Shown here in pieces: positions 17,717-56,727 of a DNA stretch of 64,000 bases. Numbering within the stretch: position 1 is the stretch's first letter; each line of letters begins with the position of its first letter. The notes under the pieces are model-generated. The model was not told the origin of the DNA. It worked only from the letters and a program-made list of their open reading frames with translations, and did not search any database. Position numbers and translations under genes: made by a program. The DNA comes from a virus (taxonomy: Duplodnaviria > Caudoviricetes), in IMG/VR virus record IMGVR_UViG_3300028048_000112, positions 1 through 64,000 of that record; one strand, written 5' to 3'.

Positions 17717-17856
17717 GTAGCACCTCCTGTCTTAAGTGTAAGAGTAAGATATATTGGAAAGATATTCTATACTCTTCATTAATATAATATATAACTAGGA
17801 TGTATAGTTTAACAGAAAAAAAAAATAAGACCCGGGGTAACTCCCGGGTCTTATTC

Positions 17857-18477: not shown

Positions 18478-18599
18478 AATTGACTCCTTATAGAAGGGTT
18501 TTAGATTTGGTTGTTTCCCTTCCTCATTATTATAATATATAATTATAACCCCCCCCCCAACAGAAATATAAAGAAGGGCCGAAACCCTTCTTTATATAT

Positions 18600-30480: not shown

Positions 30481-30582
30481 GTAAATTATACTTATATATT
30501 ATCTCTATAACTAACTCGGGCAAAATTGCTGCGTCGCATGTCAATTTGCCCGTTTTACAAAATCTAATATGGGGGTAAAGGT

Positions 30583-31176: not shown

Positions 31177-31297
31177 GTGTGATCTCGGAAGTTGAGTTTA
31201 ACATTGTGTTCTTAGAAAAGACTTTGAATTTATTCGAAGTCTTTTTTTTTCATAAAAAAAAAATAGGAAGATGGGAGGTATCCCATCTTCCTAATCT

Positions 31298-31350
31298 AAA
31301 AAAGAAACTCCCCTACTCACACCCACCTTTCGGCAGGTGCTTTCGGAGAG
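31298..31350 (-). ncRNA. Loop-E (AGUA/GAA) terminator hairpin, copy 1
   Basis: CUCUCC-GAAAG-CACCUGCC-GAAA-GGUGGGUG-UGAGUA-GGGGAG-UUUCUUUUUU. Confidence 0.7.
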
Positions 31351-31356
31351 GCCAGA

Positions 31357-31650
31357 TTACATTTCCCTAGTTACCTTAAGGAATTTGAATTCGCAATCTG
31401 GCGGCAGGGTTGTAGCACCTTCTGGCAGGCGGCCTTTTCTTAGCTGGGCCACGTACAGAATTTCTCCAGGTTCTATTTTTACATTGATACGATTGGGCTC
31501 ATAACCGAACACATGAGCCGTGTCGGCATGTCCAATTGCGGACTCCAATCCTTTTGGAAATTCTGCAACCTCTTCGATCAAAACGCGAGCAGGAAACTGA
31601 TCAATCATCTGAAGGCTGAATGCATTGCAAATATAAACTTTCTTTTCCAT
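31357..31650 (-). CDS. acrIII-1: AcrIII-1 viral ring nuclease (DUF1874/STIV B116 family), type III anti-CRISPR
   Basis: KVYICNAFSLQM, SAIGH41, PNR54, LYVAQ and GR74LPE77G match, in order, the family motifs I recall from SIRV1 gp29 (YLANAFS, SIGH, NR, LYVVQ, RLEEG). Confidence 0.85.
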   Translation of the reverse strand: MEKKVYICNAFSLQMIDQFPARVLIEEVAEFPKGLESAIGHADTAHVFGYEPNRINVKIEPGEILYVAQLRKGRLPEGATTLPPDCEFKFLKVTREM

Positions 31651-31743
31651 AATAATACTCCTTGGCTACTTTATCCAATGTGGGCCTCGTAACCTGAGGG
31701 GTGTATGGTTTTCTCTCCATACCACTTTACTATCTACTATTAT

Positions 31744-31779
31744 TATAATATATAAGTGAAAAGGGTGGTTGAACAGAAA
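31744..31779 (-). promoter_or_regulatory. Bipartite early promoter of acrIII-1
   Basis: Minus strand TTTCTGTT-N16-TTATATATTATA. Confidence 0.65.
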
Positions 31780-31816: not shown

Positions 31817-34033
31817 TTATGCCCAAGCGAAAGATTGTTTGAATAATGAATGAGGATCATTAGAAGTATCACGTTTTTCAATAACTTCAGCTTCTTTTTT
31901 CTCAGGTTCATCATCATCGAATACATAAGTTCCATCATCTCTGGTTTTACCATATTCTGGAGCATCATTAATGTATTCATCAGCAATCTTATCTACAATA
32001 ATGTCTTCTTCTTTAATCTTAGGAGAAGCATCATAATTTGTTAAATAATCCTCTGCTCCATAAGAAGTCTCTTCAGTTTCGAAACCACTTTGACCAAGAG
32101 CATTATCCATAGCAAGTTTAATTCTGTTTGTTACATGGGCATTATCTCTATCCCTATTTCTTAAATCTTTTTCTATAGATTTGAGTTTACCTCTATCGCC
32201 AAATACGTAATCCATCATAGCTCTATCAGAACCTCCATAAGCATAATTATTTAATTCATCCAATTCTTCTGTAGTATAATTTCCGTCGAGATTAGAATTG
32301 AAATAAATCAAATCCATATATTTACTCTTAGATTTACAATACATAATGAACCATCTACAGTAAAGATATGCTATAAGAAGGTCATCGTGTCCACCGTTTT
32401 GTTTATGATCTATACGGCCATTTTTATCGGTAATCAAACCTGCAATTTCGTCAATAATTGTTTTATCATGTATCTTATTACCATGCTCAAAGATAGACAC
32501 ACGGATTACATCTCCATACATCAACTTACGCAAATTATGAACCATAGATACACCAAGACGTTCATCTTTTTCATCTTTGTATATTCTAGATTGACTCATA
32601 TTTTCTGCAATAATTTCTGTTACAGGCAAACCAGTGTAGTTTCTTTCTGGAATAAGTACACTCTTTGGAAACAAATATGTTAAAATATATGCAACTGCTC
32701 TACCAAAACGTATAATAGAGAACTGATTACATCTCATAGTGAATACAACTTCAGAATTAGTAACATCTACACCAACTAATGTAGAAAAGTCTCGTCTATT
32801 ATTACCAGAACAGTCCATACCAAACACAATGTGATGTGATTGTGAACGTAATAGATCGGGATCTCTATAGAACTTACAAACATAAATTCTATCAACCATG
32901 ATAATACGTACTGGATCCATACCAGTTTTCATAAGTTCTTGAATACGTTCCTGACCCAATGGGTGGTCACTATTAGAATCTGTCCAATGGTTAAGAATAC
33001 CACGTTCAAATTCATCCATACCAGCCATTTCACGTCTTTGTTCTTCAAGATATGTTTCTGGTTTACCCAACTCATACCATTGGTACTCAATTCTTAAAAA
33101 GAATTTACCATGGTTATTATTCTGAATATATTCTTGAACAGCATCTTTATCTATACCAATATAATTACCATACTGATCGGTTACAGCGCAATCGTAAAGG
33201 AGTTCTGTAAATGGTGCACAATCATTGAAAAACTGATATGCCCATCCACCGCTTTTAGATTTTTTATTAGCAGCAGTAGTGGTAATAATAATATGGTGAT
33301 GAGATCCATTACGTTCTGCAGCTTTTGAAACTGTAGAATATGCAGGAATAGCAGCACCATACTGTACCCAAATATATGGAATAAAAGCAAACTCATCATA
33401 CCATTGACCCATAGTAGAAGCACCACGACCTACATTGTTTGCAGATTCTTCATTATTGCCTGGACTACGAGTAGTAATAGTATTAGAATATTCACCTGTT
33501 CTATAAATAATCGAATGTACGTTATCTGTATCTAAATTGGATTTTAGATTAAGATATGACGGAAGCGATTCTCTAACATCTTTTACACGAGATAAATTCT
33601 GTGTTACAAGAGTATCATTCTGTGCAAAAAATGCAGCATTAAAGTTTTTAGCTCCCCAATATATAATCCAAGAATAAAAACAAGCAACTGTATAAGATTT
33701 ATAACACTGACGAGGAATAACTACATATGAGTGCAAGTCATTTATCAATGTCCATAAAATTGCCAATGTTGCTCTAGTTAATTCAAAATCCAGTTTAATA
33801 TCAGTCATTGGAATTTTGACTATTTCTCGGAAATAATACCAAGGATTTTTACTTATTTCTATATGAACTCTAAGTTTTTGTTCGTTTGTTAAAGAATCTT
33901 CGTCTAATGGATCAATATCTAACAAAGTTTCATCATAAAGCTGTAAAAAGAATGTATTATTTTTAATTCCCATTTCTTTGAGAATATAATGCATTCTTAA
34001 GAACGAAACGTTCTTTGTATTGTATTGTAGCAT
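31817..34033 (-). CDS. terL: Terminase large subunit
   Basis: Walker A IPRQCYKS, Walker B QWYDEFAF, coupling motif IITTTA, and nuclease residues FGMDCSG and GGHDDLL. Confidence 0.9.
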   Translation of the reverse strand: MLQYNTKNVSFLRMHYILKEMGIKNNTFFLQLYDETLLDIDPLDEDSLTNEQKLRVHIEISKNPWYYFREIVKIPMTDIKLDFELTRATLAILWTLINDLHSYVVIPRQCYKSYTVACFYSWIIYWGAKNFNAAFFAQNDTLVTQNLSRVKDVRESLPSYLNLKSNLDTDNVHSIIYRTGEYSNTITTRSPGNNEESANNVGRGASTMGQWYDEFAFIPYIWVQYGAAIPAYSTVSKAAERNGSHHHIIITTTAANKKSKSGGWAYQFFNDCAPFTELLYDCAVTDQYGNYIGIDKDAVQEYIQNNNHGKFFLRIEYQWYELGKPETYLEEQRREMAGMDEFERGILNHWTDSNSDHPLGQERIQELMKTGMDPVRIIMVDRIYVCKFYRDPDLLRSQSHHIVFGMDCSGNNRRDFSTLVGVDVTNSEVVFTMRCNQFSIIRFGRAVAYILTYLFPKSVLIPERNYTGLPVTEIIAENMSQSRIYKDEKDERLGVSMVHNLRKLMYGDVIRVSIFEHGNKIHDKTIIDEIAGLITDKNGRIDHKQNGGHDDLLIAYLYCRWFIMYCKSKSKYMDLIYFNSNLDGNYTTEELDELNNYAYGGSDRAMMDYVFGDRGKLKSIEKDLRNRDRDNAHVTNRIKLAMDNALGQSGFETEETSYGAEDYLTNYDASPKIKEEDIIVDKIADEYINDAPEYGKTRDDGTYVFDDDEPEKKEAEVIEKRDTSNDPHSLFKQSFAWA

Positions 34034-55591: not shown

Positions 55592-55949
55592 CTCCAATAC
55601 TCCTTTTGAGCAGGTTTGATTTTTTTTTATCCTACTCATTAATATAATATATAAATAATAAAAAAATAAAGGCAGTCTTAAAAAGACTGCCTTTATTTAT
55701 GGATTAAGAAAAAGCGCTTTTACATCTACAGATGTTCCACCATTCATTCATTTCTTTCTGATCATCTTCTGTAAATGTCATGCCAGATAACATTATAGCT
55801 TCATCTTGATCTATAGTACCTTTTCCTAATTTAGTCATAATAGAACGTTTCAACCATTCATCTTCCAGTTTCATTATAGTAACAAAATTCTTTAAAGTTA
55901 TGAACCTAGAAAAGTTTTTTCTAAAATATCGTCGATATTTATTAAATTT
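55086..55949. repeat. Direct repeat of about 240 nt (55086-55325 and 55711-55949), plus duplicated promoter/terminator blocks
   Basis: The 3' halves of the two paralogs are near-identical, and the CATTAATATAATATATAAATAATAAAAAAATAAAGGCAGTC block occurs at both 54971 and 55637. Confidence 0.9.
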
Positions 55950-56258: not shown

Positions 56259-56325
56259 ATATTTAATACTCCTTTTGAATAGGTTTGGATTTTATTTTCC
56301 TATTCATTAATATAATATATAACTA

Positions 56326-56372
56326 AAAAAAGAAATCCTACTCACACCTTTCGGTGCTTTCGGATTTCTTTT
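56326..56372 (-). ncRNA. Loop-E (AGUA/GAA) terminator hairpin, copy 3
   Basis: AAAGAAAUCC-GAAAG-CACC-GAAA-GGUG-UGAGUA-GGAUUUCUUU-UUU. Confidence 0.7.
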
Positions 56373-56388
56373 AGAGACTACTTTTGGA

Positions 56389-56589
56389 TCACCATCCAAA
56401 TACAACTTTTCTCAATTTAATGAAGAAAGTTTTTACTGTGATCCAAATCTTCTTTACCACTCTAACTGGCAAAGAAGATCTTTTGTCAGATGACCAGCTC
56501 TCGAGCTCTTCGAGACTGATCGTGTGATACTTACCATTGCGGATGTTATCAGCAATGATTTCCGCCAGAACGTTGTTTACCGTATTCAT
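56389..56589 (-). CDS. 66-aa hypothetical protein with a basic amphipathic C-terminus (early cassette)
   Basis: Start reassigned to ATG 56589 behind a GAGG SD; bipartite promoter at 56646-56681. Confidence 0.65.
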   Translation of the reverse strand: MNTVNNVLAEIIADNIRNGKYHTISLEELESWSSDKRSSLPVRVVKKIWITVKTFFIKLRKVVFGW

Positions 56590-56727
56590 ATAATACCTCT
56601 TGAAGATAGGGATTGAGATTTTGGTTGTTTCCCCTTCTTCAGTATTATAATATATAAGTGGGGGGGGGGATTGAACAGAAATAAATATAGTGACTCTGGA
56701 ATAATCCAGAGTCACTTATATGTTAAA

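Follow-up and report, generated by a model that had tools for sequence, protein, structure and literature searches.

A candidate RNA family of probable intrinsic-type terminators with an invariant, predicted loop E module in jumbo-phage contigs and CPR bacterial genomes

We describe a recurrent hairpin in an uncultured AR9/phiKZ-type jumbo phage that is best read as a member of an undescribed RNA family, intrinsic terminators with an embedded conserved loop E module, for which no Rfam family is matched at threshold. The DNA analysed here (the window) comprises the initial 64 kb of a viral contig of 88,955 bp, which has 34% G+C and an estimated completeness of 32%. Its genes include those for a large terminase (31817-34033), a tail sheath, a baseplate, an HNH endonuclease and a DnaB-type helicase, and among cultured phages the closest terminases (about 30% identity) are those of jumbo phages that infect Staphylococcus, Bacillus, Erwinia and Pseudomonas. 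Pattern searches together with two covariance models returned 57 matches, corresponding to 53 distinct hairpins, in related AR9/phiKZ-type jumbo-phage contigs, other metagenome contigs and a few CPR bacterial genomes. Copies share a plan of basal stem, GAAAR/UGAGUA internal loop, variable apical stem-loop and U-tract. The usual view of intrinsic terminators is of sequence-free hairpins; in the present case a module with a defined, predicted three-dimensional fold stays invariant inside the putative terminators of unrelated genomes while its surroundings change.

A preliminary description of the window had listed three copies retaining GAAA(G/A) opposite UGAGUA, with inner stems of 8, 8 and 4 bp and apical loops GAAA, AAUA and GAAA. 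A pattern search recovered all three at the same places, each on the minus strand, and their sequences bear out these stems and loops. The first copy, c1 (31298-31350, 80.6 bits), consists of a 6-bp basal stem (CUCUCC/GGGGAG, 31345-31350/31308-31313), an internal loop of GAAAG (31340-31344) and UGAGUA (31314-31319), an apical hairpin with an 8-bp stem and a GAAA cap (31320-31339) and a U-tract (31298-31307), with UUUCUUUUUU directly 3' of the hairpin when 31298-31350 is read on the minus strand. Copy c2 (47844-47898, 76.1 bits) pairs CCUCC (47894-47898) with GGGGG (47858-47862) below GAAAA (47889-47893) and UGAGUA (47863-47868), carries an 8-bp apical stem with the loop AAUA (47869-47888) and ends in a U-tract at 47844-47856. 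The shorter c3 (56325-56367, 46.5 bits) has a basal stem of AAAUCC (56362-56367) and GGAUUU (56333-56338), GAAAG (56357-56361) and UGAGUA (56339-56344), the apical hairpin CACC-GAAA-GGUG (56345-56356) and a U-tract at 56325-56332. A fourth copy lies beyond the window at positions 85836-85887 of the same 89-kb contig. Each copy begins a few bases 3' of a stop codon.

The loop alone, searched as a loose pattern, occurs 3 times in the window against 4.2 expected and is not beyond chance, as it might be if these were ordinary terminators that look alike through recent duplication or coincidence. We regard that account as highly improbable. A composite descriptor, which adds apical pairing, a U-tract and a basal stem of no fewer than 4 bp to the loop, was observed 3 times in the window and not once in 200 dinucleotide-preserving shuffles; the stems have diverged around an invariant loop; and the element occurs in unrelated genomes. 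Terminase relatives and a pattern scan of viral contigs yielded copies in related phage contigs, a covariance model (R1) then recovered 12 copies at 11 loci, and the genes flanking these 11 loci are non-homologous save for one orthologous pair. Nor did 534 kb of five contigs contain any degenerate copy with up to 3 mismatches in the 15-nt core.

Covariation of the flanking stems, also proposed in the preliminary description, is borne out in both alignments, each of which was fitted to its model and therefore favours the structure. Among the 12 phage copies 98.5% of stem positions pair and 9 of 14 pairs are changed on both sides, a result equalled by none of 500 shuffles. In the 57-match alignment (56 distinct rows) 97.4% of stem cells are paired and 13 of 14 pairs show compensatory changes (0/500 shuffles), and no slid register comes close to the true pairing. 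This larger set contains 28 pairs of the G·U type against 5 of the A·C type, which indicates a fold specific to the transcribed strand and hence a structure at the RNA level rather than a DNA cruciform.

Conservation is concentrated in a small core. GAA and AGUA are invariant in all 57 matches and in the CPR variants, and every neighbouring position can change: variants found by the models include GG-GAAAG-UU...GA-UGAGUA-CC, GAAAA-UU...AA-UGAGUA, GAAAG-UC...GA-CAAGUA, GAACG/CAAGUA and GAAAG/UUAGUA, which alter the closing pairs, the CA/UG pairs and two core-adjacent positions while retaining GAA/AGUA. Since the metagenome and species-genome sets were gathered with a pattern that fixes an extended core, CCGAAAGCA...TGTGAGTAGG, apparent conservation outside GAA/AGUA is partly circular. 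The remainder of the hairpin is elastic, with basal stems of 3-14 bp, apical stems of 1-9 bp and a total helix length of 11-25 stacked layers (about 11-15 in many copies). Tetraloops cap 33 of the 53 hairpins (GAAA caps 18), and other apical loops include UUUAU and longer ones. An orthologue of c1 (L026/L039) illustrates this elasticity: the two phages are near-identical, the flanking protein is 100% identical and the internal loop is the same, and c1 has four additional base pairs in its apical stem (CACCUGCC...GGUGGGUG versus CACC...GGUG, 31320-31339). Stem length here evolves faster than the flanks.

The identification of AGUA/GAA as the bulged-G motif agrees with both consensus and polarity: AGUA lies opposite GAA, its final A and the initial G of GAA both sitting directly next to the basal helix. 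The consensus fits a stack of a sheared G·A pair, a trans A·U pair with the bulged G, then A·A, A·G and R·U layers, and we therefore interpret GAAAR/UGAGUA as a putative eukaryotic-type loop E, or bulged-G (S-turn), module. Among the few variants, whose isostericity was judged by eye, the R·U position occurs as G·U, A-U and G-C, and the A·G position as A·A, C·A and A·U. The closing pair is C-G in 52 matches, G-C, U-A and U·G once each, and a C·A mismatch once. GAGUA/GAAA with a G-C pair on the sheared side is identical in sequence to the loop inside domain IIId of the HCV IRES, the domain to which we take the HCV string used for comparison to belong. That string is given in PMC3001475, and IIId folds as a loop E with an S-turn in a solved structure (PMC2726286). 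AGUA/GAA polarity and flanking helices are likewise shared with eukaryotic 5S rRNA loop E and the 23S rRNA sarcin-ricin loop; what differs is the setting, a terminator hairpin of phage and bacterial mRNAs with a fold predicted from sequence, and the G-rich loop of IIId is absent here.

Kink-turns, which require a three-nucleotide bulge followed by tandem sheared G·A/A·G pairs, were considered and rejected on reading the sequence, neither strand having a bulge and GA in the required order. A possible resemblance to the loop E arm of bacterial 5S rRNA (CCGA...GAGUAGG) is a lead that lacks Rfam support, no 5S rRNA match being returned around the copies at E values up to 10. The bulged-G module is also shared with the ribosomal sarcin-ricin loop, and the preliminary description had offered a ribotoxin decoy as one option. 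A decoy for ribotoxins, or for other factors that target that loop, we consider exceedingly improbable: the GAGA tetraloop of the sarcin-ricin loop, closed by one pair directly beside the bulged-G module, was found in none of the hairpins, and the apical loops (GAAA, AAUA, UUUAU and longer ones) stand 1-9 bp from the module. The absence of the tetraloop together with an apical loop variable in both sequence and distance leaves the decoy proposal unsupported.

The covariance-model and Rfam searches suggested in the preliminary description returned relatives in phage contigs and CPR genomes and no Rfam family at threshold. A stricter pattern matched 46 metagenome loci, of which about 27 share proteins with this phage clade and the rest do not, and 6 loci in species genomes, two of which (L071 and L072) look like chance matches. 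Three species-genome loci (L070, L073 and L075) carry the titles Magasanikiibacteriota and Saccharibacteria; together with metagenome loci L109 and L118 they adjoin genes for a methyltransferase, a TrmB regulator, a solute-binding protein, a sulfatase, a radical SAM enzyme and the GTPase YchF. Bacterial genomes with the element hold 1-3 copies each, and 3 of 151 sampled genomes of that CPR phylum matched in a search of limited sensitivity. Within the phage clade the distribution is patchy: two near-complete relatives, G001 (264 kb) and G002 (276 kb), contain no copy by pattern or by either model, and the weak model matches in them are plain perfect hairpins. Separately, several viral contigs (L025, L028/L035, L030/L032, L033, L036 and L038) match CCGAAARCA...TGTGAGTAAG but lack a U-tract or a well-formed basal stem; they are probably chance or coding sequence, and some of them share a GUUAAG-type loop.

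At gathering level, Rfam matched only a tRNA in the whole window, and around the copies, at E values up to 10, it returned only sub-threshold DUF3800-IX and DUF3800-X hits and unrelated noise. The DUF3800-IX and DUF3800-X RNAs (Weinberg et al. 2017, PMC5737381) resemble the element in a basal helix closed by CC GAA(AG) ... (AG)UA GG, and DUF3800-IX also ends in a U-run. The likeness is local and below threshold, however (15.5 bits against a gathering cutoff of 36.8 for IX, 16.3 against 38.2 for X), and the internal parts of both RNAs are much larger. The DUF3800 gene itself (PF12686) was not detected in any of five phage records (G000, G006, G008, G009 and G002), in a search that matched control genomes. 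Our literature search for a loop E or sarcin-ricin motif within terminators found no description of one. The nearest parallel comes from phiKZ-type jumbo phages such as phiKZ and 201phi2-1, whose terminators include motifs conserved in sequence, with antitermination as a proposed function (PMC11512511); in both cases, jumbo phages with their own polymerases reuse a few motifs genome-wide. Those motifs are known from MEME logos and are likened here by description only, the accessible part of that source mentions no loop E module (PMC11512511), and the loop E motif, unlike them, also occurs outside phages. With two covariance models and 53 distinct hairpins, the element is a candidate new RNA family.

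Placement of the element is that of an intrinsic (Rho-independent) terminator: a stem-loop with a direct U-tract, on the coding strand, a few bases after a stop codon. A same-strand ORF precedes 54 of the 57 hairpins at a median stop-to-hairpin distance of 8.5 nt, and a U-tract is present in all copies, including every true hairpin of the viral-contig scan, in which it was not required. A strict scan of the contig found 33 other strong terminators, similarly placed (median 13 nt from the stop), all of them perfect hairpins without an internal unpaired base and with a median energy of -16 kcal/mol. The loop E hairpins, about 4 of 37 strong terminators on the contig, form a structurally distinct minority in which an invariant 5 x 6 purine-rich internal loop splits the stem and the Watson-Crick parts alone are weak: their median nearest-neighbour energy, calculated with the internal loop treated as open, is -8.1 kcal/mol, the median apical stem is 3 bp, and two copies have only CA-GAAA-UG above a 4-bp base. 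Such helices would make poor terminators unless the loop is structured, which is an argument rather than a measurement.

Taken as a whole, our reading of the element as an RNA-level terminator of the factor-independent type, in which loop E joins two short helices, is the one we lean towards, with modest confidence. The hairpin and its U-tract would release the polymerase and form the 3' end of the mRNA, and the non-canonical stack would make a single continuous and rigid helix out of two individually weak ones. Loop changes of any kind would then disable the terminator, which alone would explain purifying selection on the loop. The preliminary description had reasoned that an ordinary terminator does not need such a loop and that a protein-binding or nuclease-blocking role was therefore likely, yet the loop could be selected simply for joining two short helices. 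Because the complementary strand yields pyrimidine loops unable to form an S-turn, such a terminator should work in one direction only. The module stands at varying distances from base and tip, which counts against any fixed polymerase contact. The element may in addition serve as an exonuclease barrier or docking surface. The element offers a compact model of about 40 nt, testable with clear point mutants, that could show whether non-canonical RNA modules tune termination, its direction or 3'-end stability. One arrangement qualifies the terminator reading: c1 is followed directly by a second strong terminator, so that the loop E hairpin alone could terminate poorly.

An intergenic hairpin with a conserved internal loop in the early transcripts of a large phage also recalls T7 or SP82, in which RNase III, guided by an internal loop, cuts once at sites between early genes. 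A site of the T7 R1.1 type lies within a polycistronic RNA, offers a duplex of roughly two helical turns and is cut in its internal loop. By analogy, the element could be an endonuclease processing site of RNase III type, a single cut leaving a protective 3' hairpin. We consider this unlikely, because every copy has a U-tract as an integral part and is often succeeded by a promoter, leaving no polycistronic RNA to process; many copies, at only some 11-15 stacked layers, are moreover short for RNase III.

A purely structural role for loop E may undersell the module, since S-turns are typical protein-recognition sites. They serve as recognition surfaces in rRNA and the HCV IRES (PMC2726286), and a serious, though less probable, alternative is that selection keeps the S-turn chiefly for docking a broadly conserved protein that modulates termination or protects or marks the 3' end of a subset of transcripts; NusA or polymerase, a ribosomal loop E binder of the L25 type and an RNase are examples only. 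Consistent with this, the element sits on only 4 of the roughly 37 strong terminators of the contig and goes with one promoter subclass there, one of its cassettes encodes an AcrIII-1-like anti-CRISPR protein, and the conserved terminator motifs of phiKZ-type phages come with a proposed role in antitermination (PMC11512511). Against it, no candidate partner protein was identified, the distances from module to base (3-14 bp) and from module to tip vary, and so do the positions outside GAA/AGUA. Recruitment of a phage-specific factor, an option in the preliminary description, has become less likely, as bacteria carry the same loop: it ends ordinary genes in CPR genomes, and its presence there and in unrelated contigs counters a factor specific to the phage clade.

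More speculatively, and with somewhat greater doubt, loop E might act as a portable tag of 3' ends that some conserved cellular factor reads, be it polymerase/NusA, a loop E-binding ribosomal protein or an RNase. If so, it would confer factor-dependent termination or unusual stability on chosen transcripts, here those of early accessory genes including the anti-CRISPR-like one, and would define a new class of 'structured terminator' common to jumbo phages and CPR bacteria.

Under the terminator reading that we prefer, the element would close small, self-contained early gene cassettes, laid out as promoter, 5' hairpin, Shine-Dalgarno site, short ORF and terminator. The gene ended by c1 (31357-31650, minus strand) has its own, probably early, cassette and encodes a 97-aa DUF1874/AcrIII-1-like protein of the viral ring nuclease family (PDB matches 2x4i, E=5e-8; 6scf, 4.6e-7; 2j85, 7.7e-4), with its stop codon 6 nt before the hairpin. 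Copy c2 ends a minus-strand ORFan of up to 139 aa (47918-48337), whose true start may be residue 11, and c3 ends another (56389-56715, minus strand), whose real product is probably the last 66 aa (56389-56589) because the promoter falls within the long ORF. For the flanking genes other than the AcrIII-1-like one, Pfam, PHROGs, PADLOC and Atlas gave nothing informative.

The promoters of the three cassettes, all on the minus strand, share one three-part layout, TTTCTGTTCAA, a C-rich spacer and TTATATATTATAATA (an AR9-type early consensus), at 31736-31779 for c1, 48422-48466 for c2 and 56638-56681 for c3. The highly conserved motif TTATATATTAT-6N-G, which matches the early promoter consensus of phage AR9, occurs about 25 times on the whole contig, almost always on the minus strand; the window has about 18 minus-strand sites (among them 56657, 55654, 54988, 48441, 47841, 47477, 36476, 31755, 28421, 20933, 18542, 17794 and 14317) and a sole plus-strand copy at 30492, and most sites lie directly 3' of the preceding terminator's U-tract. 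In AR9 the early promoter consensus, AAATATATATTAT-(6N)-G, is read by the injected virion polymerase (PMC5312081), and by analogy with it the genes ended by loop E hairpins are probably early. The upstream TTTCTGTTCAA and C-rich spacer are common to the cassettes of c1-c3, and 3 of the 4 loop E copies on this contig are paired with the C-rich promoter variant. Scored with a loose promoter pattern over five contigs, 3 of 7 C-rich promoters go with a loop E terminator, as against 8 of 173 others (Fisher p ~0.005). The association is real but partial.

How the c1 cassette came to its present site can be read from relatives. At nine related loci (L001-L005, L011-L013 and L017) a single perfect hairpin and a convergent gene come straight after the terminase gene, and four more (L006, L007, L009 and L014) have same-strand coding sequence there, apparently a downstream gene. 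Here a promoter, the AcrIII-1-like gene and the c1 hairpin sit between the terminase gene and a perfect 13-bp hairpin (31264-31293, minus strand; 31254-31293 with its U-tract) that begins 4 nt past the c1 U-tract. This perfect hairpin, matched by position, is probably the counterpart of the relatives' single post-terminase hairpin, which suggests that the c1 cassette was inserted as a unit and would explain the tandem terminators at 31254-31350. Accessory genes travel as promoter- and terminator-bounded units in lambdoid morons and in the promoter-early stem-loop cassettes of T4-type phages, and the present cassettes resemble both in carrying their own promoter and terminator between core genes. 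They differ in having a specific loop E terminator and, in 3 of 4 copies, the C-rich promoter variant, and in showing no evidence of recombination at the loop E hairpin.

Such an arrangement, in which the element closes insertable cassettes on their 3' side, the c1 cassette is apparently inserted upstream of the relatives' post-terminase terminator, and apical length varies widely (by 4 bp even between c1 and its orthologue), would also suit a DNA-level hairpin site for cassette mobility. Akin to an integron attC or a REP sequence, it would be a single strand that folds with fixed unpaired bases and a variable tip and is read by a recombinase. We think this very unlikely, given the 28 G·U against 5 A·C pairs, where a structure used as DNA should show no preference for G·T over A·C, the constant U-tract and the terminator-like distance from the stop codon; no attC-like or REP-like core is apparent in the element. 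On our preferred reading as terminators, the hairpins mark a subclass of insertable early cassettes in this phage, one of them AcrIII-1-like, and may thereby help to find accessory and anti-defence genes in uncultured jumbo phages.

Several further features accompany the early transcription units. Just upstream of some early promoters on the minus strand lies a TTTCTGTT(CAA) element with a homopolymer-rich spacer of 10 C, C5UC5 or 10 G (56649-56681, 48433-48466, 31747-31779, 18534-18566 and 17786-17818), in which run lengths vary between copies and between related phages. Most early promoters are followed on their 3' side by a covarying 5' hairpin of the type GAGNAGG...CCUNCUC with an A/C-rich loop, for example AAACAACCAAA, which appears to open the transcripts and ends exactly at an AAGGAG Shine-Dalgarno site (for example 56590-56635, 55600-55640 and 18480-18530, minus strand). 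Directly 3' of one early promoter is a tRNA-like gene (47367-47446, minus strand; Rfam tRNA, 51 bits) to which ARAGORN assigns no anticodon, giving a 4-nt 'cccg', and in which the anticodon arm is apparently replaced by a longer GAAA-capped stem. Finally, another 3' element, some 55 nt long, is also repeated. It consists of a 12-bp hairpin containing a single bulged base, then ACCGGAUUGCUACGGU and a U-tract, and has three minus-strand copies beyond the window at about 88574, 88056 and 81584 of the contig (L021/L022) and one (L133) in a relative without a loop E hairpin.
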